DNA of 64,000 nucleotides from a virus (IMGVR_UViG_2639762987_000002), one strand, 5' to 3'. Counted from the first letter of the stretch, positions 1,229-47,207 are shown. Numbers and translations: made by a program. The notes: generated by a model not told the origin, from the sequence alone.

Positions 1229-4200
1229 ATGGAACAGTTCAAGAAGAAAAAATTACCGCTTCTTATTGCCGGTGCTGGTGGCAAGAAAAGTAAAAGCTCC
1301 AGCCGTACCCCGGTTGAAGCTGATGATACTGTCAATTCTCGTGCTATGGCAGCCATCCTCGACCTTCTTGGCGAGGGGGTTATCGGTGGCCTGGTAAATG
1401 GCGCAAAGTCGATCTTCATCGACGATTTACCGATCTTGAATGAAGATGGCTCTTCCAACTTCAGCGGTATTACATGGGATTTTCGTGACGGCTCACAAGA
1501 CCAGACGCCAATGGCTGGTTTTGATTTTGTTGAAACGCCTAAGTCCGTAAATATTCAGCTTAAAAAAACACACGACGTTACGGTTTCAATCGATAACGAT
1601 GAAGCTGATCGCGTTCGTGTCATCATGAAATTCCCCTCTTTACGTAGCGTTGATAAAAGCTCTGGCGATACAAATGGCACTACGGTGAAGTACAAATTCC
1701 AGATCGCCAACGCAGACGCAACATTTTCTGATGTAGTGGCAGAAGGTGAGAAAAGCGTTGATATCACGCTAACGGCAAAGAAAACAGGCGTGTATTACCG
1801 TAGCTATGAGCTGAAACTACCTAAGCCTGGTCGTGCATACAAGGTTAGGGTGATTCGTCTTACGGATGATAACAGTAGCCAGTACCTCTACAACGATACC
1901 TGGGTTGATTCCATCGGTGAGATTGTAGATACCCCCATGAACTACCCTAACTCTGCACTTGTTGGCTTAAAGGTCAATTCAGAGCAGTTTGGTAGCACAA
2001 TGCCTTCCCGTTCGTATTTGGTGCGCGGTATCAAAATTCGAGTGCCGTCAAACTACAACGAATACACCAATACTTATGTCGGCGTATGGGACGGTACTTT
2101 TAAGCTGTTGTCTTCTTCAAACCCTGCGTGGATTCTCTACGATTTGCTTACCAATACTCGGTATGGTCTTGGGCAATTTGTGTCGGAGTCCATGATTGAC
2201 CTCGGCCAGCTCTACCAGATTGGTCGATATTGTGACGAAGAGGTCGATGATGGCTTTGGGGGTAAAGAGAAACGCTTTGCAATCAATACGCAGATCACCA
2301 GTCGACAGGACGCATACCGATTAATTCAGGATATTGCCGGTGCATTCCGCGGCATGGTGTTTTGGGCTGGTGGCATGGTTAACATCATGCAGGATAGCCC
2401 ATCAGATCCGGTAATGATGTTTACCAACTCCAACGTCAAAGATGGACTGTTTACCTATAAAGGTTCTGCGCGTAAAGATCGCCCATCCGTTGCGCTCGTG
2501 ACCTACAACAACAAGGAGGACGGTTATAAGCAAAACATCGAGTACGTTGAAGATCAGGACGCAATGCGCCGTTATGGTGAGCGTAAAACAGAAGTCGTAG
2601 CATTTGGATGTACAAGCCGAGGCCAGGCCCACCGAGTTGGTTTGTGGCTTTTGTATACCGCCAGAATGGAGTCGGATGTAATTACATTTACTGCCGGCTT
2701 AGACGCCTCATTTCTGATGCCCGGTGAAACCGTTCTGATTCAGAACAAATATCGTGCAGGTAAACGTAACTCCGGTCGAATTGTGGAGTTTACCAAAAAC
2801 AGCATCACTCTCGATGCGCCTGTGTCGTTAGCTAAAAGCGGCAGCTTTATTCGGATATTGAATCAGGAAGGCAAAATCGTTGAACGCGATGTTCTTGAAA
2901 CTGGCGAAAACATAACAAAGGTTACGTTTTCAAAAGCCCTGTCGTCAGCGGAAACGCCTGTTTTGAACGGTGTCTGGACAATTACAGAACCAGATCTTGA
3001 ACCTATGCGCGTTCGCATCGTTAACATCGCGCAGGGGGAAACGCCGGGTAGCTTTGACATCACCGCTGTTGAGAACAATCCGTCTAAATATGAGGCAATC
3101 GACAATGGTGCAACGCTTATCCCGCAGAATACGACGGTATTGGACCCGACTTACTCCAAGCCGTCTAATTTGCAAATCACTGAAGGGACTTACCTCTCAA
3201 GCCCGGGCAACCTGTCAGTAAAACTGACTGCAACATGGGAAGGGAAATCTCCAGAGTATTGGATCAGTTGGCGACGTTCTGATGAAAACAATGTATCGAA
3301 CTGGCAATCGGCGCGTGTAACCGAAGAACAATACGAAATCGTTAATGTCGCGGAGAATGGACGCTACGACTTCCAACTGTATGCGGTTTCATTCAACGGT
3401 AAAAAAACAGAAATTATCAGTACCGTTTATCAGGTGCTGGGAACAATGACACCGCCGGATGCACCAACGTCATTAACGGCCGTTGGAGACTATCGTAATG
3501 TGATACTGAATTGGGTTAATCCAGATTCGGTAGACCTTGATCACATTAATGTTTACGCATCCCAGACCAACAATCTGGATACGGCGAAACTGATCGCAGA
3601 GTCTGCAAGCACCACCTTTACACATGCTGGTCTTGGGGATAGCGAAACGTGGTATTACTGGGTTCGAGCATCGAACAAGCGAGGTATGTTAAGCCCTCCG
3701 AACTCAAACTTGGGTACAGAGGCGACAACTCGCGATGTACTGTCGTTCCTGGCTGGCAAAATTACATCTTCCGAGCTTGGTCAGGCTCTGCTTGAGGACA
3801 TCAACAGCAAAGCCTCTCAAGAAGCAGTTGACGAGTTAAATGAGCATATCAACCAGAGCGTCGAATCTTTGGAGGGGTCGGTAAACGACGTTAAGGAAGA
3901 TATAGCTGAATTAGATAAGCAGTTCAGCGATAACCTCGCGGGTTTTGAAATAAAATTCAACGAGCGTAGCGATGCTTTGGAGAACGCACAAACCGAGCTT
4001 AAAGGTGAGGTTTCGGCAACGATCGACAAGGTCAATGAAGCGTTTGAAAAAATTGATGCTACTGATGCTGCAATTGTTGAAATCGAAAACACCGTATCTG
4101 AACACGATAAAGCTCTCGCTAATACAGTCGAGGCAATAAAGGCTGCAAGAGACGAAGCGGCGGCTCTTATTGCTAAGGAAAGCGAGGCTCGTGTTGAAGG

Positions 4201-5953
4201 TGATGCCGCAAACGCTAAACAACTGGAAGTGTTGCAGTCGACGGTAGAGGAAAGTTCCGCAGCCGTTGAAGAAATGAAAAAGACGGTTGCAGAGGTCGAT
4301 CGTGCCAGTGCAGAACTGACTACGAACATTGAGGCGTTAGCTAAAACAAATATTGACCTGGCTCTTCGTCAAGATGAAGACCAGCACAAGCAGATGGTCA
4401 ATAACGCGAAGATCGCAACAACACAGAAAACCTTTGCTGATGATATGTCTGCAATGGCCACGAAGGTTGAGGAAATTCGCGTAGAAATTGGCGAAGACAT
4501 TAAGGCCAGTATTCTGGAAGAGTCCACCGCTCGTGCCGATGGCGATGAAGCGTTGGCAAAGCGTGTCACTCAGCTGCAATCTAAGTTTGAAGGAGATATC
4601 AGCGCGGCGATTAGTACAGAACAGGAGGCTCGTACATCTGCCGATGAAGCTTTGACGAAACAAATAACTCAGCTTGAGTCGAAAGTAAGCAACGATATTG
4701 TCGCAGCCATTAAGGAAGAGCAAGAAGCCCGAGCAACGGAAGATTCGGCTCTGGCAAGCCAGATCACCCAACTTCAGGCAAAAGTTGATGATGATATTTC
4801 TGCTGCAATACGCAGTGAGCAGGAGGCGCGTGCGAGCGGAGACTCTGCGTTAGCTAAACAAATAAACCAGCTTCAAGCAAAGGTTGACGGTGATATATCC
4901 GCTGCCATCACTCAGGAGCAGGAGGCCAGAGCAAGTGCTGACCAGGCGCTCTCACGAGAAATTAACAGCCTGCGAGCACAAACCGGAACTGATATTGCCG
5001 CAGCGGTTGCTGTAGAGACAAAGGCAAGGACTGATGCCGATAGTGCATTGTCCACTCAGATTTCGTCTCTTACAGCAAAAGCTAATGATCTCGAGGCATC
5101 TCTTGCCAGAGAAACAACGGCTCGTGCTGATGGTGATACCGCTTTAACAAAAGAGGTTTCAAGTTTAAAAGCACAGACAGCGAAAGATATTAGTGCGGCC
5201 GTTGCAGTTGAAACGCAGGCTCGAACTGATGCTGACTCGGCGTTGTCGTCTCAGATCACCAAGCTGACCTCTCAATACAAAGAGGATATTAAAGCGGCTG
5301 TAGCAACCGAAACGAAAACGCGTACAGAGCAAGATGCTGCATTGGCGACTCAAATCACAAACTTAGAGTCTCAAACGGCAGCCAACATTTCCGCGGCGGT
5401 AACAACTGAAACGACAGCGAGAACGCAGGCAGATAATGCTCTGAGTGGGCGAATCGATACTCTGAAAGCAGAGGTGGATGGAAATACCGCGACAATTCAA
5501 CAGCAGGCAACAGCTATTGCTAATACCAACAAAAAAGTGTCAACCGCGTGGACGTTGAAAATGGAAACTTCAACGAGCGGAGGGCAGAAGTATGTTGCTG
5601 GTATTGCGCTTGGTATCGACACCACTGGCCTTTCTCAGTTTTTGGTGCAGGCTGACAGGTTTGGTTTGGTCAACTCTGTTAACGGGAAGATCACCACGCC
5701 ATTTGTTATCGAAAACAGTATCGCCTATATGAATGGTGCGTATATCAAGGATGGCACAATCACCAATGCAAAAGTAGGCGATCTGCAATCTACCAATTTT
5801 GTTAGCGGTAGATCTGGATGGCGGTTCGGCAAAAATGGAACGCTTGAGATCAACGGTAATAGCGGGGGTAATGGGCGACTGGTCATAAATGGTCAGCGGA
5901 TTGACGTTTATGACGATAACAACGTCTTACGAGTAAGAATTGGCCTTCTGTGA
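1229..5953 (+). CDS. Tail tip host-specificity protein, lambda gpJ-like, with inserted coiled-coil repeat stalk
   Basis: About 1574 aa from ATG 1229 (ORF track starts at TTG 1223); blocks NSALVGLKVNSEQFG, GFGGKEKRF, AFGCTSRGQAHRVGLWL, KYVAGIALGI..LSQFLV match lambda J from memory. Confidence 0.8.
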   Translation: MEQFKKKKLPLLIAGAGGKKSKSSSRTPVEADDTVNSRAMAAILDLLGEGVIGGLVNGAKSIFIDDLPILNEDGSSNFSGITWDFRDGSQDQTPMAGFDFVETPKSVNIQLKKTHDVTVSIDNDEADRVRVIMKFPSLRSVDKSSGDTNGTTVKYKFQIANADATFSDVVAEGEKSVDITLTAKKTGVYYRSYELKLPKPGRAYKVRVIRLTDDNSSQYLYNDTWVDSIGEIVDTPMNYPNSALVGLKVNSEQFGSTMPSRSYLVRGIKIRVPSNYNEYTNTYVGVWDGTFKLLSSSNPAWILYDLLTNTRYGLGQFVSESMIDLGQLYQIGRYCDEEVDDGFGGKEKRFAINTQITSRQDAYRLIQDIAGAFRGMVFWAGGMVNIMQDSPSDPVMMFTNSNVKDGLFTYKGSARKDRPSVALVTYNNKEDGYKQNIEYVEDQDAMRRYGERKTEVVAFGCTSRGQAHRVGLWLLYTARMESDVITFTAGLDASFLMPGETVLIQNKYRAGKRNSGRIVEFTKNSITLDAPVSLAKSGSFIRILNQEGKIVERDVLETGENITKVTFSKALSSAETPVLNGVWTITEPDLEPMRVRIVNIAQGETPGSFDITAVENNPSKYEAIDNGATLIPQNTTVLDPTYSKPSNLQITEGTYLSSPGNLSVKLTATWEGKSPEYWISWRRSDENNVSNWQSARVTEEQYEIVNVAENGRYDFQLYAVSFNGKKTEIISTVYQVLGTMTPPDAPTSLTAVGDYRNVILNWVNPDSVDLDHINVYASQTNNLDTAKLIAESASTTFTHAGLGDSETWYYWVRASNKRGMLSPPNSNLGTEATTRDVLSFLAGKITSSELGQALLEDINSKASQEAVDELNEHINQSVESLEGSVNDVKEDIAELDKQFSDNLAGFEIKFNERSDALENAQTELKGEVSATIDKVNEAFEKIDATDAAIVEIENTVSEHDKALANTVEAIKAARDEAAALIAKESEARVEGDAANAKQLEVLQSTVEESSAAVEEMKKTVAEVDRASAELTTNIEALAKTNIDLALRQDEDQHKQMVNNAKIATTQKTFADDMSAMATKVEEIRVEIGEDIKASILEESTARADGDEALAKRVTQLQSKFEGDISAAISTEQEARTSADEALTKQITQLESKVSNDIVAAIKEEQEARATEDSALASQITQLQAKVDDDISAAIRSEQEARASGDSALAKQINQLQAKVDGDISAAITQEQEARASADQALSREINSLRAQTGTDIAAAVAVETKARTDADSALSTQISSLTAKANDLEASLARETTARADGDTALTKEVSSLKAQTAKDISAAVAVETQARTDADSALSSQITKLTSQYKEDIKAAVATETKTRTEQDAALATQITNLESQTAANISAAVTTETTARTQADNALSGRIDTLKAEVDGNTATIQQQATAIANTNKKVSTAWTLKMETSTSGGQKYVAGIALGIDTTGLSQFLVQADRFGLVNSVNGKITTPFVIENSIAYMNGAYIKDGTITNAKVGDLQSTNFVSGRSGWRFGKNGTLEINGNSGGNGRLVINGQRIDVYDDNNVLRVRIGLL
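4500..5480 (+). repeat. About ten in-frame tandem 99-bp (33-aa) repeats inside the gpJ-like gene
   Basis: Repeating unit DISAAIxxEQEARAxxDxALxxQIxQLxxKVxx read in the translation; predicted alpha-helical. Confidence 0.75.
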
Positions 5954-38413: not shown

Positions 38414-39487
38414 ATGGCAAAAGGAAAATCCGCACTGGCACTTGCTCTGAAAAAGAAAATCGGTAGCAACGACGAAATTCAGAAAGTAACTCATTGGATT
38501 GATACAGGCTTTCCACCGTTAAACAAAGCTATTTCTGGTCGTTACGATGGCGGCTTCCCATGTGGTCGTATCGTCGAAGTATTCGGTCCTCCAAGTGCAG
38601 GGAAAACGTTCCTTGCAACAGCAGCGATGATCTCCGCTCAAAAACAAGATGGTCTGGCGGTATTCCTCGATCATGAAAACAGTTTTGACGTTGGTCTGGC
38701 TGTAGCCAATGGCCTGAACGCAGATGAGGATGACGGTCAGTGGGTATACAAGCAGCCTGATACCTTCGAAGACTCTGTAGAGTTGATCGGCACAATTCTT
38801 AAATTGGTACGTGATGAAGAGCTTATTCCTGAATCAGCACCTATCTGTATCGTGGCTGACTCACTTGCGTCTATGGTTCCGAACTCCAAAGCCGAGAAGT
38901 TCGAAAAGATGGCTGAAGGCACTGCCAAAGACAAAGATCAGCTAAACATGAACGACAATACGGCACTGGCTCGTGCGACAAGTGCGAACTTCCCTACTCT
39001 GGCTTTGTGGGCACGCAAATACAACGCCTGCATCATCTTCTTGAATCAGGTTCGCACAAAAATCGGTGTAATGTTTGGCGACCCTACTACGTCGCCAGGT
39101 GGAGATTCACCGAAGTTCTACGCTTCTGTACGTATCCGTCTTGGTGCATCGGTGATGAAGGATGGTAAAGAGAAGATCGGCCAGGACGTAGGCGCAGAAT
39201 GCATCAAAAATAAAGTTGCACCACCGTATGGCAAATGCACCTGGAAATTCTACTTCGATCCTACTCGTGGCCTCGACGTTATCGAATCGCTCGTCGAGTA
39301 CATGCTGGAAGAAGGATACCTGCCAAAGAACGCCAGCGGGCGAGTTGAAATTGGTGACAAGAAATACACCAAATCGCAGATCGTCGAGATGTATCGGGAG
39401 AAGCCACTGGCTGAAATCATTGCGGCTTTGCAGGCAATCGACGACCGAAGAGCAAAAGACAACCCCACCGAGTCAGTAGAAGAGTAA
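38414..39487 (+). CDS. RecA-family recombinase
   Basis: 357 aa; Walker A VFGPPSAGKTFLA; RBS AAAGGAG. Confidence 0.65.
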   Translation: MAKGKSALALALKKKIGSNDEIQKVTHWIDTGFPPLNKAISGRYDGGFPCGRIVEVFGPPSAGKTFLATAAMISAQKQDGLAVFLDHENSFDVGLAVANGLNADEDDGQWVYKQPDTFEDSVELIGTILKLVRDEELIPESAPICIVADSLASMVPNSKAEKFEKMAEGTAKDKDQLNMNDNTALARATSANFPTLALWARKYNACIIFLNQVRTKIGVMFGDPTTSPGGDSPKFYASVRIRLGASVMKDGKEKIGQDVGAECIKNKVAPPYGKCTWKFYFDPTRGLDVIESLVEYMLEEGYLPKNASGRVEIGDKKYTKSQIVEMYREKPLAEIIAALQAIDDRRAKDNPTESVEE

Positions 39488-39493
39488 ACACAA

Positions 39494-39516
39494 GGCGTCC
39501 ACAGGACGCCTTTTTT
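39494..39516 (+). terminator. Rho-independent terminator
   Basis: GGCGTCC-ACA-GGACGCC followed by TTTTTT. Confidence 0.8.
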
Positions 39517-39521
39517 ATCTC

Positions 39522-39550
39522 TTGAAAATATATAAGTACTTACTTATTAT
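39522..39550 (+). promoter_or_regulatory. Sigma70-like promoter with palindrome ATAAGTACTTACTTAT in the spacer
   Basis: TTGAAA (39522-39527), 17-nt spacer, TATTAT (39545-39550); spacer carries the dispersed palindrome family. Confidence 0.5.
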
Positions 39551-39579
39551 TTTCGCATAACAACCACATAGGAAAACAC

Positions 39580-39780
39580 ATGATCAAAATCTATCTATTG
39601 GCAGTAGCCACAGGCCTTTCAGTGGCTCTCATCTACGGTTTACTGGTTCCGTCGCTGATTTCTACCAAGAGTGATTTAGCCGTCATGTTTGGAGTTATCG
39701 TTGGTTTTGGTGCTCCTGTAATCGGTCTTATTGCTGGTCGTAAGTTTATCAACTCATTAATCAAAGCAAAGGGGAAATAA
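39580..39780 (+). CDS. Small membrane protein
   Basis: 66 aa; two hydrophobic helices; immediately upstream of SPFH lipoprotein gene. Confidence 0.5.
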   Translation: MIKIYLLAVATGLSVALIYGLLVPSLISTKSDLAVMFGVIVGFGAPVIGLIAGRKFINSLIKAKGK

Positions 39781-39783
39781 GTA

Positions 39784-40614
39784 ATGAAGAAAGGTTTACT
39801 TGCAGTTGCTCTGGCGGCTATTTGCACAATGGGTCTTACTGGCTGTGATCGCGTGGAGCCTGGATACGTTGGCATCAAAGTAAACAAATTAGGTGAAGAC
39901 AAAGGGATCGGTGAAGTGGTTGGCGTTGGTCGCCAATGGACAGGTCTTAACACCGAACTTTACGTATTCCCGACCTTCAAACAAATGAAGACCTACGACG
40001 AACCGTTCACATTCCAGATGAGTGACGGTACTGCTATTGGTCACAAAATTGGCGTTGCGTATCTGGTTAATCGTGACAAGGTAACGACGGTGTTCCAGAC
40101 CTATCGCAAAGGCGTAGACGATATCACCGAATCAGATCTGCGTCAGAAAATTGCCGACTCTCTAAACCGTTTGGCCAGCCGTATGACCACTGACTCATTT
40201 ATCGACGGTGGTAAGGCGCAATTGCTGGACAACGCACTGAAAGACATTCAGAAAGAGATGTCTCCGGTTGGTATTGAGGTACTGAGCCTGTCATGGGTTG
40301 GAAAGCCTGATTACCCAAAAACCGTCATTGAATCTATCAACGCCAAAGTAACGGCTAACCAGCGTACTCTGCAACGTCAGCAGGAAGTTGAACAGCGTAA
40401 AGCTGAGGCGAATATGCTACGTGAACAGGCTAATGGTGAAGCTGATGCTATCCGTGCTCGTGCGCAAGCAGAAGCCGACGCCATTCGTCTGCGCGGTGAA
40501 GCTCTGCGTCAAAACCCGAACGTTATGGAGCTGGAAGCCATCAATAAATGGAATGGCCAGTTACCGCAGTACATGACTCAAGGGGCTAACACTCCTTTCA
40601 TTACAGTGAAATAA
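39784..40614 (+). CDS. SPFH/band-7 domain lipoprotein
   Basis: 276 aa; lipoprotein signal MKKGLLAVALAAICTMGLTGC; C-terminal EAEANMLREQANGEADAIRARAQAEAD coiled coil typical of HflK/C-like proteins. Confidence 0.55.
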   Translation: MKKGLLAVALAAICTMGLTGCDRVEPGYVGIKVNKLGEDKGIGEVVGVGRQWTGLNTELYVFPTFKQMKTYDEPFTFQMSDGTAIGHKIGVAYLVNRDKVTTVFQTYRKGVDDITESDLRQKIADSLNRLASRMTTDSFIDGGKAQLLDNALKDIQKEMSPVGIEVLSLSWVGKPDYPKTVIESINAKVTANQRTLQRQQEVEQRKAEANMLREQANGEADAIRARAQAEADAIRLRGEALRQNPNVMELEAINKWNGQLPQYMTQGANTPFITVK

Positions 40615-40632
40615 CTCTCATTAAGAAGATCA

Positions 40633-40656
40633 GGCGTCCAGTTGGACGCCGTTTTA
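40633..40656 (+). terminator. Rho-independent terminator
   Basis: GGCGTCC-agtt-GGACGCC followed by GTTTTATT. Confidence 0.7.
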
Positions 40657-40680
40657 TTCTCGTTATTATCACACACAAGA

Positions 40681-40693
40681 AAACAATTTGTTA
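40681..40693. promoter_or_regulatory. Palindrome AAACAAtTTGTTa upstream of gene 40710
   Basis: Member of the AAACAA-N-TTGTTT family. Confidence 0.4.
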
Positions 40694-40709
40694 AAAGGTT
40701 AAGTTAATT

Positions 40710-41534
40710 ATGCCCAACCACATTACAAACGAAATCCGAGTCATAGGTGGTACAAATAAACAACGCTTAGATTTCATACGTGCCATAACTAACAAAAAAG
40801 GTCTAATTGACTTTAATACCATTTGCAGACGTCCGAAAAGTATAGAAATGGAAGAAAACAATCATATCAGGCGCATGGCCTCTGCAATGGCGGGCGAAAC
40901 AGTTTACGACCACATGTTCGGTGAATTAAAGACTCCAGAACAGGTCGAATTAGCTATGCGTGAATCAGGAATGACACGCAAGGAAATTCGCAAAATCAAA
41001 GAGCAGGCTCTTATGCGGCTTGAGAATTATCGTCGCTATGGCTATTACTCATGGTTTGACTGGTCGCGAGCTAATTGGGGAACAAAATGGAATGCCTACA
41101 ACATCGAAATGCCCGTAAAACGTATCCCTACACGTATTAAGTACGGCCATAATTTCCGCCATACACACGTTCGAGCATATGCAAAAAGAATCTATAAAAA
41201 ACGTCTTGCAAGACATGCCGCAACTGGTGGTGAGTTGGTGATTCGCTTTGAAACAGCCTGGTCTATGCCAAAACCAATTTATCAAGCGATGGCTAGAAAG
41301 TTCCCGCACCTTGAGTTTGTAATACGTTATGCAGACGAAGACTTCGGCAATAACTGCGGATTCATTTTACTTCGCAACGGCAAATGGGAATATGACTACA
41401 TTGCACCGGCGAATAACAAACAATCGTCAGAAGAAAAAATCAAATGGCGCAAGTTCGCCTTTGAGTTATGTTGTCCTGGTATCACTCCACAAGAATACGG
41501 TCTAAATGAAGAATACGAATACGCCGGATATTAA
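40710..41534 (+). CDS. Hypothetical protein
   Basis: 274 aa; Trp-rich motif YSWFDWSRANWGTKWNAYNIE; basic. Confidence 0.5.
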   Translation: MPNHITNEIRVIGGTNKQRLDFIRAITNKKGLIDFNTICRRPKSIEMEENNHIRRMASAMAGETVYDHMFGELKTPEQVELAMRESGMTRKEIRKIKEQALMRLENYRRYGYYSWFDWSRANWGTKWNAYNIEMPVKRIPTRIKYGHNFRHTHVRAYAKRIYKKRLARHAATGGELVIRFETAWSMPKPIYQAMARKFPHLEFVIRYADEDFGNNCGFILLRNGKWEYDYIAPANNKQSSEEKIKWRKFAFELCCPGITPQEYGLNEEYEYAGY

Positions 41535-41581
41535 AAAAAATTGTCATTTAGCTTTACGCATGAAGCATAGAGGTTAATAAG

Positions 41582-42322
41582 ATGAAAAGAAAAATTGAAG
41601 AACCAAAAACGACCCTTAATAAACATGGGGAAAAAATTCAAACACATCCAGCGTTCGGTCTTGTGAAAACAAGCCGTGTTAGCACAACTGGCATTCGCCT
41701 ATTTGATTCAGAACTGGAACATAGAGACTATATTGAAATAGGCGTTTACGAGGCGGAACTGTCCTTAGACAATGAACGAACCCGCCCACAAAGAAGTTGC
41801 AATAGACGGCCTTTAGTTGAAATTAGACTTAGCCAGGCACAATGGGCTGCTATGGTTAGCAGTTTTGGAGTGGGCGAAGGTGTGCCATGCACTATTTCAT
41901 ATAAAACCATTGGAGACTCAATTAGAGTTCATGATATTGCCGAGCAAAAAAGTATTCGGCAAAAATTCAACGATCAAATAAAGGCCGCTACGAATAGTGA
42001 GATTGATCGACTTAATCAGCAAGTTTCAGAGCTAGGTGAACTTGTGAAAAAAGGAAGAGCTGGAAAACGTGACCTTGAAGAACTATATAGAAAACTAGCA
42101 TCTGCTGTAGCTAACCTTCCTGAAAATCTGTGCTTTGCTACCGAATTAATGCAGGAACAAATGGATGAAATTGTCTCATCTGGAAAGGCGGAGATTGAGG
42201 CGTATGTTGCGGGCACGGTTATGCGTAAAGGGTTAGCAGCATTAGGCACAGAATCATGCATTAACGATGATCCTACTGTCTCTATCACCAAAATGGAAAG
42301 CGGTAAAGAATTACTGCCATAA
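41582..42322 (+). CDS. Hypothetical protein (coiled-coil)
   Basis: 246 aa; RBS GAGG. Confidence 0.5.
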   Translation: MKRKIEEPKTTLNKHGEKIQTHPAFGLVKTSRVSTTGIRLFDSELEHRDYIEIGVYEAELSLDNERTRPQRSCNRRPLVEIRLSQAQWAAMVSSFGVGEGVPCTISYKTIGDSIRVHDIAEQKSIRQKFNDQIKAATNSEIDRLNQQVSELGELVKKGRAGKRDLEELYRKLASAVANLPENLCFATELMQEQMDEIVSSGKAEIEAYVAGTVMRKGLAALGTESCINDDPTVSITKMESGKELLP

Positions 42323-42342
42323 ATGCATCTGAGGTACTGACA

Positions 42343-42732
42343 ATGCTTTTAATTCAACCTGGGTTCGGTTTAAAGATAAAAAAAGGGCATATGTTTGGTG
42401 AGCGAGATTCCAAACGAAAAATTCTGTCTATTCGATTACCATTTATCACCATTCATTGGTTAAACAGAGAGTCAACCGATTATTGGTATAAATGCGCAAG
42501 AGCAGCATTTAACGACCCTGACTGGTTTGTAGAAAATCACCACGCGGTTCGTCAGGCAAAAAGAAAGGCTAATACGACATATATGAAGGCATATCAGGAT
42601 GCCTGGGAAGAACATCGTGGCCGATACCAAAAAAACATTGAAAAACTTGAATCAGAAAATATGGACCTAAGAAGAAAACTCGGTGAAGCACGTCGAGACA
42701 TCGAAGCATATAAACGTCTTGTATCGGAGTGA
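42343..42732 (+). CDS. Hypothetical protein
   Basis: 129 aa; basic, C-terminal coiled coil. Confidence 0.45.
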   Translation: MLLIQPGFGLKIKKGHMFGERDSKRKILSIRLPFITIHWLNRESTDYWYKCARAAFNDPDWFVENHHAVRQAKRKANTTYMKAYQDAWEEHRGRYQKNIEKLESENMDLRRKLGEARRDIEAYKRLVSE

Positions 42733-42793
42733 ATATATCTTTGCTTTATTTTTTCAAAGGTGATTATTTTCCTATTTATAAGGAGAAGTAAAC

Positions 42794-43219
42794 ATGGCAG
42801 CAATTAAGAAACTCTACGATGCCGCAAACGCGGCTCTGGATGTTATTGATGATGAAGTATCAAAAGGCTTTCCTGAACCTGATTGGGCGCATCAGCTACG
42901 AAACGCTATCGCCGAAATGAATCCACCAGATCCGACCACCGACGAGACAGACTGGCAGCGATTTATCCGTATGTACGCTCAGGAAATAGGTCCAACGCCA
43001 ACGGCAGAGCAAGCAATGCTGCTGAAATACTTCAAAGAGGCGGGAGAGGATTTACCAATTGATGACTCAGCATATTGGTTCCACTGCGCATGGCGTAAGT
43101 ATGACGTGATATTCACACAAGGCATGGGGAGCAAAGATATGGTTGTGTGGCATCTACTCCATATAGACACAGCCGTTGACAGAGTTATTGAACAGTTTTT
43201 CCCTAAACAAGAAGATTGA
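42794..43219 (+). CDS. Hypothetical protein
   Basis: 141 aa; RBS AAGGAG. Confidence 0.5.
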   Translation: MAAIKKLYDAANAALDVIDDEVSKGFPEPDWAHQLRNAIAEMNPPDPTTDETDWQRFIRMYAQEIGPTPTAEQAMLLKYFKEAGEDLPIDDSAYWFHCAWRKYDVIFTQGMGSKDMVVWHLLHIDTAVDRVIEQFFPKQED

Positions 43220-43274
43220 TCGCCTATTCATAACTAACAAAATAAGTAAACACTAACCACAAAAGGAAAAACAC

Positions 43275-43550
43275 ATGAGAGTTTTAGTTCGAATCGTTAC
43301 CAGCACTGTCTATGACGTGTTTCCGCTTTTTATGGTCAAAGCCGATGGCCTTAACGACGAAGAAACTGACGCACTGATCCAGCGTATTCTCGTTGAATAT
43401 ACAGGTCATGACGCTGATTCAGTGATGGTTGATGATGATGGTGTTTGTTGGCATAACGGCAACTGTTGGTACGTAGAAGAGACTCAACAAATCAGTGATG
43501 AAGATGCCGCACATCTTGAGCGTATTTTAAGCATCAGCACTTTTGAGTGA
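43275..43550 (+). CDS. Hypothetical acidic small protein
   Basis: 91 aa; start context AAAAGGAAAAACACATG. Confidence 0.5.
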   Translation: MRVLVRIVTSTVYDVFPLFMVKADGLNDEETDALIQRILVEYTGHDADSVMVDDDGVCWHNGNCWYVEETQQISDEDAAHLERILSISTFE

Positions 43551-43765
43551 GTTTACAGTAAAGTTTATATAAGTTAGTATCTACCTATCATGAAGATTTT
43601 TATTGAATACTTGTTACTCATCGTTTCAATAGCTTTTGTCATCGACTGCATTTTCACTGGTGTCATTCGTAAAGTCTTTTCCCCGGTGCACGACGTAGTC
43701 ATAAACGCTTTGGCTATCGTGCTCGTATTTAATTCAGCATTTGATGTAATCAAAGAGGTGGCAGC

Positions 43766-44101
43766 ATGAAGACCATCCCATTCGCGCTGTTGTTTCTTTC
43801 TTCGATCGTTGTGGCTGACACCACTGTTTATCAGTGTGAAATGTCTGTAGCCGACGTTAAGAATGGCGCTCTTACCGACGTCATAAAAGCACCATATGGA
43901 GCGATGGTCGTAGACAGCGGCGACCAGTTCTATGTTGTGCGTGACGATCGAGTGTTGTCATCCCCATATCTCACAAATCGTAATGGCAAATTAACCGGCG
44001 TCGGAGAAGACCACTTCGTATACAACAAATACAAGGGCTTCTATGGCGTTCACGCTTCTCAGCAAAGCTACCTTTTCGATGACTGCAAGGAGGTTGGGTA
44101 A
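43766..44101 (+). CDS. Secreted small protein (signal peptide)
   Basis: 111 aa; N-terminal MKTIPFALLFLSSIVVA signal; RBS AGAGGTGG. Confidence 0.5.
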   Translation: MKTIPFALLFLSSIVVADTTVYQCEMSVADVKNGALTDVIKAPYGAMVVDSGDQFYVVRDDRVLSSPYLTNRNGKLTGVGEDHFVYNKYKGFYGVHASQQSYLFDDCKEVG

Positions 44102-44313
44102 TGGCATTAACACTGGCAGGTCTGGAAATCGAGAAAACAAGCGGCTACTGGCGTGCTAAGGGTTTCAAGCAGCCTGGCATTCTTGAGCGTCTGGAACGTG
44201 AAGATGGGTATATCGTCCACCAGCGGCGTGAATGGCGTATGTACGATCCAGAAACAGGAAAACTGACTACAAAAGCCGGAACACTTTGGGGTCTGTTGAA
44301 GAAAATACACTAA
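44101..44313 (+). CDS. Hypothetical small protein
   Basis: 70 aa; start overlaps upstream stop (TAATG). Confidence 0.45.
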   Translation: MALTLAGLEIEKTSGYWRAKGFKQPGILERLEREDGYIVHQRREWRMYDPETGKLTTKAGTLWGLLKKIH

Positions 44314-44360
44314 ATGCAAACTGACTGCGGCTCGTTCCGCAGTCATATTTCATAGTCGTC

Positions 44361-44893
44361 ACCGCTGACAGCATACACAATCAACTACCGCTGATAGCAT
44401 ATCGAGAGTCTATCTCACCGCTCACAGCATACTTTACTCGATTTTTTACCGCTGACAGCATACTTAAGAAATTGCATGAATAATGTGTCCCGGTATGGGT
44501 ATAACCAGAACAAAATTACCGCTGGCAGCATACGAATGTCTGACATATACCATTAATTACCGCTGATAGCATATCCAAACAAAAATTCCTCAATAAAACA
44601 CCGCTGACAGCATACGTTCTATCAGGGAGTAGCAGGCAATAAATGCCTTTCACTACAAGCAATCAGCGCAATAGCAATAGAATGTTAGTGAGCGCAAACC
44701 TATATGGAATGCACTCTTCGAGGTTAGTAACCACTGGGGAGGTATGACAGAGCATTGAGTGGTGATAGATGATTTACCGCTCACAGCATACGTTCATCTC
44801 ACTATACCGCTGGTAGCATATCTTTAACCGTTCACAGCATACTTTTCAGAAAAATAGCCGCTGATAGCATACATTTCACCGCTGACAGCATAT
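44361..44893 (+). repeat. Iteron array downstream of rep gene (12 direct repeats, consensus ACCGCTGACAGCATAC)
   Basis: Copies begin at 44361, 44387, 44417, 44448, 44518, 44559, 44600, 44776, 44806, 44827, 44857, 44878; all same orientation, irregular spacing 21-70 bp. Confidence 0.85.
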
Positions 44894-45987
44894 CAAAGCA
44901 GTTTGAGACTATTGGAAAGGATCTCAATCATCTTGATATTTTCAGGCGTCAAATTCTGCGAAAGTTCGGTTATCTTGTTGATAATGTTCTGTTTGGCATC
45001 AATTTCCCCAGCTTTCTCATCTGGTTTTTTGGGTTCGATGTCTTCAGGTTTTGGCGGTGCGACTTTGAGTTTTGGATTGCGGCTGTGAATCTGGATATAG
45101 ATCGACCGCCCACGCTTAATCTCGCTGTATTCGAGATAGCCCAAATCTTGGAGAGCTTTTAAGCCGTTACGTATAGTCTGATTCTGCGAGCTGACATTCC
45201 TGCTACTCAAATTGAGTCGCGCACGCAATCGAGCAAGCGATACCGGCGCAGGCTTGGTTGGAAGACTTTCGATGAAGGTGTACAGAGCCTGTGCTGTTTC
45301 TTTGCGTGGTAGCTTATTGATAACCTTTAACTGCAAAAGAACCTTATGGTCAAAGCGATATAGCTCGGCCAGCTTCGGTTCTGCATAGAACACCACCGTA
45401 TCTTTCTGCTCGTTGTAGTCCACGCTATTGATGAGGTGCACCATCAGAAGCGAGATCTTGTTAGAGCCGTCGACGTTCTTTTCTTCATACGTTCTCTGGA
45501 AAGACAGAGTTGTACGCATGATCTTCAAAAGACTGTTTGTAAGCCGGTCGCGGAGTGTTTTGCGGATCTGTGACGATGGATAGCCACAAAACTTAGCAAA
45601 TTTCGTGATGCTTAACTCGACACGACCGTTAGGTTCGCCGTATTCTGCCAGCGAACGCACAACGCCCACCCACGTTTTGAAATCATGATCCATGTCGAGA
45701 CGAGGACCGGTTATCTTGATATCGGAATAGCCTTCAGAACGGGCTACTTCGAGCTGGACAAGCTCCTTTGAAGCATCGATCTCATTTGGCTTGTTACGTT
45801 TACTGTATTTTGTTCCCTTAAGCGTGGGGACGAACAACCCCAGTCGCATCAACGCAATTGGTTGGACTGTATTGTTGCTATTAGGGACAAGTTCCCCTGT
45901 GTACAATTCAAGGGAACCTTCTTCAAAGTTGTCGATGTTATCTTCTACTTCTTTGTTATTTTTACCTTTTTTATTTTTTGTGGACAT
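44893..45987 (-). CDS. repA: Iteron-binding plasmid-type replication initiator (RepA-like)
   Basis: Minus strand, 364 aa from ATG at 45987 with RBS AAAGG (ORF track extends to 46107 across iterons); flanked on both sides by iterons. Confidence 0.6.
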   Translation of the reverse strand: MSTKNKKGKNNKEVEDNIDNFEEGSLELYTGELVPNSNNTVQPIALMRLGLFVPTLKGTKYSKRNKPNEIDASKELVQLEVARSEGYSDIKITGPRLDMDHDFKTWVGVVRSLAEYGEPNGRVELSITKFAKFCGYPSSQIRKTLRDRLTNSLLKIMRTTLSFQRTYEEKNVDGSNKISLLMVHLINSVDYNEQKDTVVFYAEPKLAELYRFDHKVLLQLKVINKLPRKETAQALYTFIESLPTKPAPVSLARLRARLNLSSRNVSSQNQTIRNGLKALQDLGYLEYSEIKRGRSIYIQIHSRNPKLKVAPPKPEDIEPKKPDEKAGEIDAKQNIINKITELSQNLTPENIKMIEILSNSLKLL

Positions 45988-46007
45988 GTGGACACCTTTG
46001 TCATTCA

Positions 46008-46109
46008 ACCGCTGACAGCATACTTGATTTGCCGCTGACAGAATACCAAAAACAGTTGGCAGCATACGGTGAACCGCTGACAGACTATCAATTACCGCTG
46101 ACAGCATAC
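46008..46109 (+). repeat. Origin-proximal iterons upstream of rep gene (5 copies, about 21-bp periodicity)
   Basis: Copies at 46008, 46031, 46052 (degenerate), 46073, 46094. Confidence 0.8.
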
Positions 46110-46149
46110 ATGAACATGACTTCAGACCAGGCGTGGCGCGGCTTACAGC

Positions 46150-46222
46150 GATCGGGGATCTTATTTGATCTATATAAGGATCTGTCTATGGATCTCTTTA
46201 TTAGGATCTATCCTGTGGATAT
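46150..46222. promoter_or_regulatory. Origin-like region: six clustered GATC sites and a DnaA-box-like TGTGGATAT
   Basis: GATC at 46150, 46157, 46168, 46180, 46191, 46205, four inside (A/T)GGATCT heptamers; TGTGGATAT at 46214-46222 is 8/9 to the DnaA box. Confidence 0.6.
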
Positions 46223-46308
46223 GTGAATAATTAAAACAGGCATTTACTACCTTCGGCGCACCTGGTGGGTTATCGTTGCCTCGGCTAACAATCACAGAAA
46301 AATGACAT

Positions 46309-46953
46309 ATGGATCTAAAACGCACGCGCTGGGTTCGTCGTCTTGAAGACGGCTCCTACACTATCGAATCAAATTCCAACCTGAATAAGCAGAAGTTGCT
46401 TTGTGACATCTGCGGTATAGCGGCGAAGTGCCCGATCTACGAAACCAGAATTAAACTTGATAAGGCTGGTGTGAATTTTCATTTAAACAGTTGCATCAGG
46501 TACGTTCCATTACTCGCATTTCGTAAACCGATCATCGGATTGGATGCTCCCTACTTCAACACACTCCGTTCAGGTGTGACGTGGCGAGATCGTTTATCAC
46601 CAGACAAGCTGATTTGCCTCGTATCCGCAGACACAGGGAAAATCATCCGTTTTGGGAAAGTAGACAAGGTTTACTCAGGCCCAGTAGACGAAATGTTGCG
46701 GAAACACAGCCGGTTTAATCATCTCTGTATGGGTGGTGAGAAAATCGAGAAGGTAGAAGAAGTGATCCGCAAATCCTACGGACACTTTCTGACCAAAGAT
46801 AGCCTGCTCACCGCAATCTACATCAAACATGTAAAACGTGAGTTCGACCTCGAATACCACAGCGAAGAAGAGCTTAACCTTGTTGACCCACGTCCAAAAG
46901 CTGGCGTCATAAGCATAAACGCAGCGCGTAAAAAGCCCACTGACGCGCTGTAA
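46309..46953 (+). CDS. Hypothetical protein
   Basis: 214 aa; several Cys; no motif recognised. Confidence 0.5.
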   Translation: MDLKRTRWVRRLEDGSYTIESNSNLNKQKLLCDICGIAAKCPIYETRIKLDKAGVNFHLNSCIRYVPLLAFRKPIIGLDAPYFNTLRSGVTWRDRLSPDKLICLVSADTGKIIRFGKVDKVYSGPVDEMLRKHSRFNHLCMGGEKIEKVEEVIRKSYGHFLTKDSLLTAIYIKHVKREFDLEYHSEEELNLVDPRPKAGVISINAARKKPTDAL

Positions 46954-47207
46954 CCCTCCAGATCGTATATTGGCGTAGATAGAATCTACGCCTCCTCAAA
47001 ATAGCTCTCATAGCGTTCTACAGTGATTCTGTCTTATTTTTAGTCATATAGACAAGCAAACTTGCGCCACAATAAATAGGTATATACTTACTTATAAATT
47101 TTGTATATTAAGGCGCTCGTTTCATTCCTAACATACCGTTATGCATAGTTGTTTACCTCATCATTGCTCTTAGAATTTGTATCAAAATAACCACAAAGGA
47201 AAAATAC

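Follow-up and report, generated by a model that had tools for sequence, protein, structure and literature searches.

A probable three-unit mosaic accessory region beside the iteron replicon of an SSU5-type phage-plasmid

Genes and boundaries of the region

We analyzed positions 40710-44313 of a viral DNA stretch of 64,000 nucleotides (IMGVR_UViG_2639762987_000002; the whole stretch is called the window), where a block of small genes lies next to an iteron-type plasmid replicon. Over positions 40000-46500, the window is 99.5% identical across the full length to the Escherichia coli O104:H4 plasmid p09EL50 (NC_018651.1) and to Shigella sonnei plasmids, and it is also related to the phages Cyrano, PhiR41_1, and SSU5. 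On the basis of these matches, we assign the window to an SSU5/pHCM2-type phage-plasmid of E. coli and Shigella. The block is located in the replication/recombination arm, away from the virion arm, and its neighbours encode an SPFH protein, recombination proteins, and RepA.

A first-pass annotation of this DNA had described seven open reading frames (ORFs). All seven are present on the + strand at the coordinates then given, and the same seven appear in the RefSeq record of p09EL50, but one gene was missed in both, so that the block contains eight. The genes and the hairpins that bound them are as follows (aa, amino acids).

ORF1: 40710..41534, + strand, 274 aa, basic; DUF1281/YubB/Api92-fold, two ferredoxin-like domains
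ORF2: 41582..42322, + strand, 246 aa; N-terminal beta domain (about 9-115) and long helical hairpin (125-223)
ORF3: 42343..42732, + strand, 129 aa, basic, probable coiled-coil C-terminus; homologue of a lambdoid nin-region gene
ORF4: 42794..43219, + strand, 141 aa, acidic; DUF7238
ORF5: 43275..43550, + strand, 91 aa, acidic; SSU5-lineage specific
ORF5b: 43590..43769, + strand, 59 aa, two hydrophobic helices (two-TM)
ORF6: 43766..44101, + strand, 111 aa, putative signal peptide and two Cys; predicted periplasmic
ORF7: 44101..44313, + strand, 70 aa, basic; P1 Cra-like
Upstream edge: 40633..40650, + strand, terminator-like GC hairpin after the SPFH gene
Downstream edge: 44322..44345, no strand assigned, bidirectional terminator-like hairpin (inverted repeat I3)

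The overlooked gene, ORF5b, is annotated in SSU5, Cyrano, PhiR41_1, and the Enterobacter and Yersinia pestis pMT relatives, and is transcribed in Cyrano. Its product has a hydropathy of 2.68 and matches phrog_2535 (3.7e-31).

The substitution patterns indicate that the ORFs of the block are real genes under purifying selection. In comparison with SSU5, the Ka/Ks ratios of ORF5, ORF6, and ORF7 were 0.03-0.08 (0.08 for ORF5 and 0.03 for ORF7). For ORF4 and ORF5b, Ks was saturated in the same comparison, with Ka of 0.17-0.18 and amino-acid identities of 75% and 68%, respectively. ORF1-3 showed pN/pS values of 0.03-0.13 against an Escherichia albertii plasmid, the ORF1 value being derived from just three differences, and ORF3 gave 0.21 against its homologue in the prophage Gally.

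The earlier statement that the proteins have no assignable motifs does not hold. ORF1 carries DUF1281_C, ORF4 is a DUF7238 protein, ORF7 resembles P1 Cra, ORF3 belongs with a nin-region gene, and all eight proteins were placed in PHROG families, every one of them labelled 'unknown function'. The other descriptions are partly borne out. ORF1, which had been called Trp-rich, contains just 7 Trp in 274 aa (2.6%), but five of these are invariant or nearly so across the family. The coiled-coil label fits ORF2, in which the AlphaFold2 (AF2) model contains a helical hairpin at 125-223; for ORF3 it was backed by weak, sub-threshold coiled-coil profile hits only. Secretion of the 111-aa ORF6 product is plausible, considering its N-terminal hydrophobic segment, VVA/D site, and two Cys, and we predict a periplasmic protein.

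An NCBIfam scan of the block proteins yielded nothing above noise, and a PDB sequence search with six of them (ORF1-4, ORF6, and ORF7) returned no matches. No structural match was detected in PHROG (all eight proteins), Pfam, or PDB (six proteins), nor did any protein fall into a virion or other annotated PHROG category. Together with the location in the replication/recombination arm, these results support the first-pass interpretation insofar as the block genes are non-structural accessory genes. No Rfam non-coding RNA family was found in 39000-47000, and the block contains no LexA box of the kind that precedes P1 cra.

Distribution and make-up of the units

The region had been taken as one seven-gene block. 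We compiled a presence/absence matrix by tblastn over 12 related loci; this matrix, the insertion breakpoints, and a cassette shared by 25 plasmids divide the region in three. We consider it probable that this is a patchwork accessory region of three units with differing histories and regulation, rather than one coherent system.

The first unit is an optional cassette.

ORF1-3 cassette: 40704..42775, + strand, 2072 bp, three genes between the shared leader and the ORF4 start codon

Alignment to the cassette-free PhiR41_1 and Cyrano placed its breakpoints at ~40703 and ~42775, and ORF1 of the window follows the leader that short variants have in front of ORF4. No convincing direct or inverted repeats flank the cassette. 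Only some plasmids of E. coli, E. albertii, and S. sonnei carry it; among the loci of the 12-locus matrix, those from SSU5, Cyrano, PhiR41_1, and the Enterobacter, Y. pestis, and Klebsiella relatives lack it. As a whole unit it is intact in 25 PLSDB plasmids (95.6-100% identity), in contrast to the 783 plasmid records that match ORF7 at at least 80% identity. All of the plasmids matching the cassette (29 of 29, including the 25 with the complete unit) are typed as non-mobilizable in PLSDB.

ORF4 and ORF5 are more widespread, occurring in the E. coli, Salmonella, Enterobacter, and Yersinia relatives and being truncated or absent in Klebsiella. The same slot can hold NinX/DUF2591 or an ORF2 homologue of 44% identity in relatives. 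ORF6 and ORF7 are present in every SSU5-type relative examined, Y. pestis pMT included, and ORF5b in all except the most distant, pCRKP18622-1, where tblastn gave no match and only inspection by eye pointed to an equivalent ORF. Orthologues of ORF4-ORF7 stand in the same order, also beside the replicon, in SSU5 (SSU5_064-068), Cyrano (CYRAN_58-62), and Y. pestis pMT, and those of Cyrano share 97-100% amino-acid identity with the window. Compared with SSU5, Enterobacter, and Y. pestis, the window adds the ORF1-3 cassette and lacks their NinX/DUF2591 gene in this slot. The homologues described below place ORF1-4 in a pool of accessory genes that virulent phages share with lambdoid nin regions and, more remotely, with the leading regions of plasmids. 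ORF5 to ORF7 are specific to the phage-plasmid lineage.

ORF1 matches Pfam DUF1281_C at residues 171-242 (57.8 bits; cut-off 22.8) and has the Api92 fold of two ferredoxin-like domains. It has 848 homologues, and its AF2 model is confident (predicted local distance difference test score, pLDDT, 93.8). The invariant positions of the family include M1-P2-N3, T125-K-W-N128, Y130, T182-A-W184, and E210-D211, a polar constellation that suggests an active or binding site. Through Pfam DUF1281/DUF1281_C, the closest proteins are Api92 of Yersinia pseudotuberculosis (PDB 2IJR) and YubB of the F plasmid. ORF1 differs from both as a distinct subfamily on a phage-plasmid without oriT or leading region, and F YubB, a short relative, has a single domain. 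The C-terminal half of the ORF1-family profile matched an F-plasmid leading-region ORF (NC_002483.1, 53322-53777; E 4.6e-9), which is presumably yubB. This ORF is missing from the PLSDB gene table and lies between sopB and the methylase, antirestriction, ssb, and psiB genes. YubB/DUF1281 has been listed as leading-region family #27, 'uncharacterized' (Samuel et al., 2024). By tblastn, ORF1 itself matched 47 plasmid records, of which 43 are non-mobilizable and most measure about 100-110 kb, plus a handful of phages. Unlike F YubB, ORF1 is not placed in a conjugative-plasmid leading region: the 25 plasmids with the complete cassette are non-mobilizable, and its surroundings encode SPFH, recombination proteins, and RepA. 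A literature search on DUF1281, Api92, DUF7238, NinX, and Cra yielded no functional data.

ORF2, with its beta domain and helical hairpin, is of a type common in phages. Relatives of ORF2 and of ORF4 sit among the small early-type genes of many virulent phages; the gene neighbourhoods of distant ORF2 homologues consisted just of arrays of unannotated small ORFs.

ORF3 belongs to phrog_1511 over its full length (2.7e-76) and is related, also over the full length, to a lambdoid nin-region gene of Shiga toxin (Stx) and HK-type phages (82% DNA and ~80% protein identity), the DNA similarity stopping at the gene limits. In lambdoid and P22-like phages, the homologue is situated between ninE and ninF/ninG, next to Lar and NinB (Gally, Stx1 phage). 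GALLYPH_42 of Gally and ORF B69 of the Stx1 phage are members of the same PHROG. ORF3 differs from these two in its setting, a cassette of a phage-plasmid that has neither the nin neighbours nor Q beside it. The ORF3 alleles of the window and of the L005/L006 loci (3840-4232) are 10% apart in amino acids, beside ORF1 and ORF2 that are 99-100% identical. This divergence next to near-identical genes suggests gene-sized allele exchange of ORF3 with lambdoid prophages or phages. The Gally homologue was expressed at background in the lysogen.

ORF4 matches Pfam PF23885 (DUF7238) over the full profile length (129.8 bits, cut-off 27; 6.1e-38), and its C-terminal part is found in 414 phage records, T4-like and rV5-like phages included. 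ORF5 belongs to phrog_2209, and among 50,697 phage records only SSU5-type ones carry it. ORF6 (phrog_2077) was likewise confined to SSU5-type records in that set.

ORF5b, ORF6, and ORF7 (the trio) are arranged as an operon, with stop/start overlaps at 43766/43769 (ORF5b/ORF6; ATGA) and at 44101/44101 (ORF6/ORF7). A promoter candidate precedes them.

Promoter candidate: 43552..43580, + strand, sigma-70-like TTTACA-17-TAGTAT, ending 10 nt before the ORF5b ATG

The ORF5b ATG has no Shine-Dalgarno sequence; with a promoter-like element ending 10 nt upstream, the mRNA is probably leaderless. The 40-nt intergenic footprint is kept in relatives from E. coli, Salmonella, Enterobacter, Yersinia, and Klebsiella, including those with another gene upstream, which suggests a dedicated transcript.

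ORF7 is 43.5% identical to P1 Cra over 62 residues (8-69; tblastn E 1e-4) and matches phrog_804 (6.5e-34). The 1426 plasmid records that it matches include the 783 mentioned above, of which those listed are SSU5-type, and 639 below 60% identity, of which those listed resemble the P1 Cra match. A profile search among 1.84 billion representative proteins retrieved only 23 clusters of the Cra-like family, nearly all of them stand-alone proteins of ~70 aa. P1 Cra (cre-associated ORF) and ORF7 have the same size, and both are encoded on phage-plasmids. Their settings differ: P1 cra (207-428) has lox on one side and cre on the other, and the cre promoters overlap it, whereas ORF7 closes a membrane/periplasmic operon beside iterons and repA, far from the recombinase gene, and not beside a lox/cre locus.

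Expression in lysogens and the neighbouring replicon

To follow the expression of the shared genes, we used published RNA-seq data for strain LF82 carrying Cyrano (PMC9928086, S1 Table). The values are log2(FPKM+5), where FPKM is fragments per kilobase per million mapped reads, for overnight growth in lysogeny broth (LB) and for 1 h and 6 h in macrophages.

CYRAN_58 (ORF4): LB overnight 2.5; macrophage 1 h 2.9; macrophage 6 h 4.1
CYRAN_59 (ORF5): LB overnight 3.2; macrophage 1 h 5.6; macrophage 6 h 5.0
CYRAN_60 (ORF5b): LB overnight 2.3; macrophage 1 h 7.0; macrophage 6 h 8.6
CYRAN_61 (ORF6): LB overnight 2.5; macrophage 1 h 6.2; macrophage 6 h 8.4
CYRAN_62 (ORF7): LB overnight 3.7; macrophage 1 h 7.2; macrophage 6 h 8.9
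CYRAN_63 (RepA): LB overnight 7.0; macrophage 1 h 8.3; macrophage 6 h 8.3

CYRAN_58-62 were at background in LB-grown lysogens, and none of them is among the lysogen-expressed morons listed by the authors of the dataset (PMC9928086); the trio, silent in LB, falls short of their moron cut-off. The homologues of ORF4-7 are therefore not constitutive plasmid-state genes, and the plasmid-state role proposed at first pass is not supported to that extent. Inside macrophages, the trio homologues rose about 60-fold, reaching RepA-like levels at 6 h, and the transcript level stepped up between CYRAN_59 and CYRAN_60. The Cyrano replication genes remained flat in the macrophage samples, and Cyrano particles in macrophages were not detected above background (PMC9928086). 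CYRAN_56-57, encoding a membrane protein and an SPFH protein, rose in macrophages while the next gene, CYRAN_58, stayed silent.

The window homologues of CYRAN_56-57, at 39580-40614, encode a membrane protein of 66 aa and an SPFH/band-7 protein whose signal is of the lipoprotein type (LTGC). These two genes form a separate unit with ~75% DNA identity to phage phiP27, flanked by terminator hairpins at 39492-39512 and 40633-40650.

The adjacency of the block to an iteron replicon, noted at first pass, is confirmed: twelve CCGCTGACAGCATA iterons occupy 44362-44892, and five more 46009-46108. The two arrays account for 17 of the 21 matches in the window, where 4.6 would be expected by chance over its whole length.

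Iteron array: 44362..44892, + strand, 12 iterons downstream of repA (incA-like), forming the context of the block

The first of the twelve iterons begins 48 nt after the end of ORF7. As a functional argument, this proximity is weak. A terminator-like hairpin stands between ORF7 and the iterons, and the replicon itself changes among relatives. Compared with window positions 44313-46300, the relatives L002, L003, L006, L009, and L010 differ in replicon (RepB-type rep_cluster_488 versus IncFIB RepA, 50% identity), while ORF5b-7 and an ASCH-like gene alongside remain 98-100% identical. The trio is thus not co-inherited with any one replicon. A swap with unchanged flanks implies that a recombination breakpoint must fall between ORF7 and repA.

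The five iterons fall within the 5' end of the annotated 404-aa RepA ORF (44893-46107, - strand). The true repA start is probably an internal Met at ~45987 (MSTKNKKGK...), which would make the 46009-46108 iterons an origin-side array. Past the replicon lies a 214-aa gene (46309-46953; phrog_2105) that is annotated as ASCH RNA-binding in Cyrano and kept in all relatives. It has no Pfam match, and its expression in the Cyrano lysogen was moderate (log2 4.6-7.4).

Possible roles of the units

The first-pass annotation had also put the block forward for anti-defence functions. For ORF1-4, an anti-defence or establishment role is plausible only by association. A published AntiDefenseFinder screen of SSU5-group phage-plasmids reported only Rad. 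According to a preprint, Rad occurs in 16-22% of E. coli/Shigella SSU5 phage-plasmids, near the frequency of the cassette. A search of the block with PADLOC models gave two chance-level matches only (E about 0.007-0.009).

We also considered whether a block gene could be Rad, using as reference T5.076, a Toprim protein that we take to be the Rad anti-retron homologue. This candidate was rejected: T5.076 had no tblastn match in the window, and the block proteins had none in the 20-60 kb region of T5. Outside the block, p09EL50 contains a Toprim gene (NC_018651.1, 31914-32405; L019), not found in the window, that is 42.5% identical to T5.076 (E 1e-34) and probably accounts for the 'Rad' calls in this phage-plasmid clade. 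This gene belongs to a second accessory region of p09EL50, with small genes of the DUF551, Ea22-like, and ClpX-zinc-finger kinds around it.

One alternative to the three-unit patchwork is that the whole block forms an anti-defence island, in which each small protein inhibits host immunity at establishment, after the pattern of the leading regions of plasmids, the nin/early regions of lambdoid phages, and the anti-defence island of T5. The enrichment of the ORF1 domain family in conjugative-plasmid leading regions would fit such an island, as would the Lar and NinB neighbours of ORF3 in nin regions, the early-type arrays holding ORF2 and ORF4 relatives, and a slot as variable (NinX, ORF2, or cassette) as is usual for counter-defence loci. 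However, no similarity of the proteins to characterised anti-defence proteins was seen, and the Rad-like gene, Rad being the one system reported for the group, maps elsewhere. In three of the eight proteins, envelope targeting or restriction to the lineage goes with high conservation instead of variability, and the ORF4-5 homologues were silent in every sampled condition. We consider this alternative unlikely.

A narrower proposal is that ORF1-3 constitute a new counter-defence/establishment module moving among conjugative leading regions, lambdoid nin regions, and phage-plasmids, with ORF1 as an enzyme or ligand-binder neutralising host immunity, and that the trio is, separately, a phage-plasmid-specific, stress-induced envelope module. 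In this full form, it is speculative and must be rated distinctly unlikely.

Very unlikely, in our judgement, is a maintenance function of the replicon-proximal genes, chiefly the Cra-like ORF7, in RepA/iteron copy control, dimer resolution, or the plasmid-versus-lytic decision. The attraction of this explanation is that every listed match of the small Cra-like family comes from a phage-plasmid or phage of the SSU5 or P1 type, and that ORF7 is small, basic, very conserved, and close to the first iteron. Against it stand the exchange of the replicon beside an unchanged trio, the intervening terminator, and the position of the P1 homologue by lox/cre rather than by the replicon. Furthermore, the Cyrano ORF7 homologue is near background in LB, where RepA is constitutive.

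That the block genes are late or virion-associated, or spurious, is hardly credible: the Cyrano trio does rise with the major capsid protein (MCP) gene and a tail gene in macrophages, but the products lack structural matches, the neighbours are replication and recombination genes, and purifying selection speaks against spurious ORFs.

Returning to the three-unit patchwork, we propose the following roles. The cassette (Unit A) consists of three promiscuous phage/plasmid accessory genes inserted exactly at the ORF4 start codon. Its products would be made soon after DNA entry or induction and serve early host takeover or establishment, with counter-defence as the leading guess. ORF4 (DUF7238) and ORF5 (Unit B) would be backbone early accessory genes, silent in the lysogen. 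From their context, we infer that the cassette and ORF4-5 may together be early host-takeover/establishment genes, for which counter-defence is the likeliest class.

The trio (Unit C) is an operon with coupled translation, a conserved and probably leaderless promoter candidate of its own, and a terminator. Its products are a small two-TM protein, a predicted periplasmic protein, and a small, basic Cra-like protein of the cytoplasm. Its context points to a conditionally expressed, envelope-directed lysogenic-conversion operon, a module of the moron type. It could serve in envelope-stress protection or superinfection exclusion, with the Cra-like protein possibly as its small regulator. The trio resembles moron and lysogenic-conversion operons in possessing its own promoter-like element, a terminator, and envelope-targeted products, and its homologues are expressed in lysogens under host-cell stress. 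It differs from them in being silent in LB and in being core to the lineage, where morons are sporadic.

Several points weigh against these assignments. The Cyrano data cover the homologues of ORF4-7 only, as ORF1-3 are absent from that phage. The rise in macrophages extends to some virion genes (MCP and a tail protein), so that the increase of the trio might reflect patchy derepression and not a response of its own. The 'early' timing of ORF1-5 is taken from position alone, and no promoter was found for these genes. The tblastn matches of ORF1 include no F-type plasmid, and the YubB link is remote, requiring a profile. Finally, the functional labels (counter-defence, envelope module) derive from context, and no gene of the block has an experimentally characterised relative.

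SSU5-type phage-plasmids are common in clinical E. coli, S. sonnei, Salmonella Typhi, Klebsiella, and Y. pestis (pMT), and the region studied here is, overall, an ordinary mosaic accessory region of this well-sampled lineage. The part beside the replicon is now sorted into a core, the Cra-like trio, and an optional cargo, the cassette of YubB-fold, phrog_6452, and nin genes. Screens for counter-defence could reasonably start from the cassette, which would give the widespread DUF1281/YubB family its first function, and the trio may provide a lysogenic-conversion function induced in macrophages.

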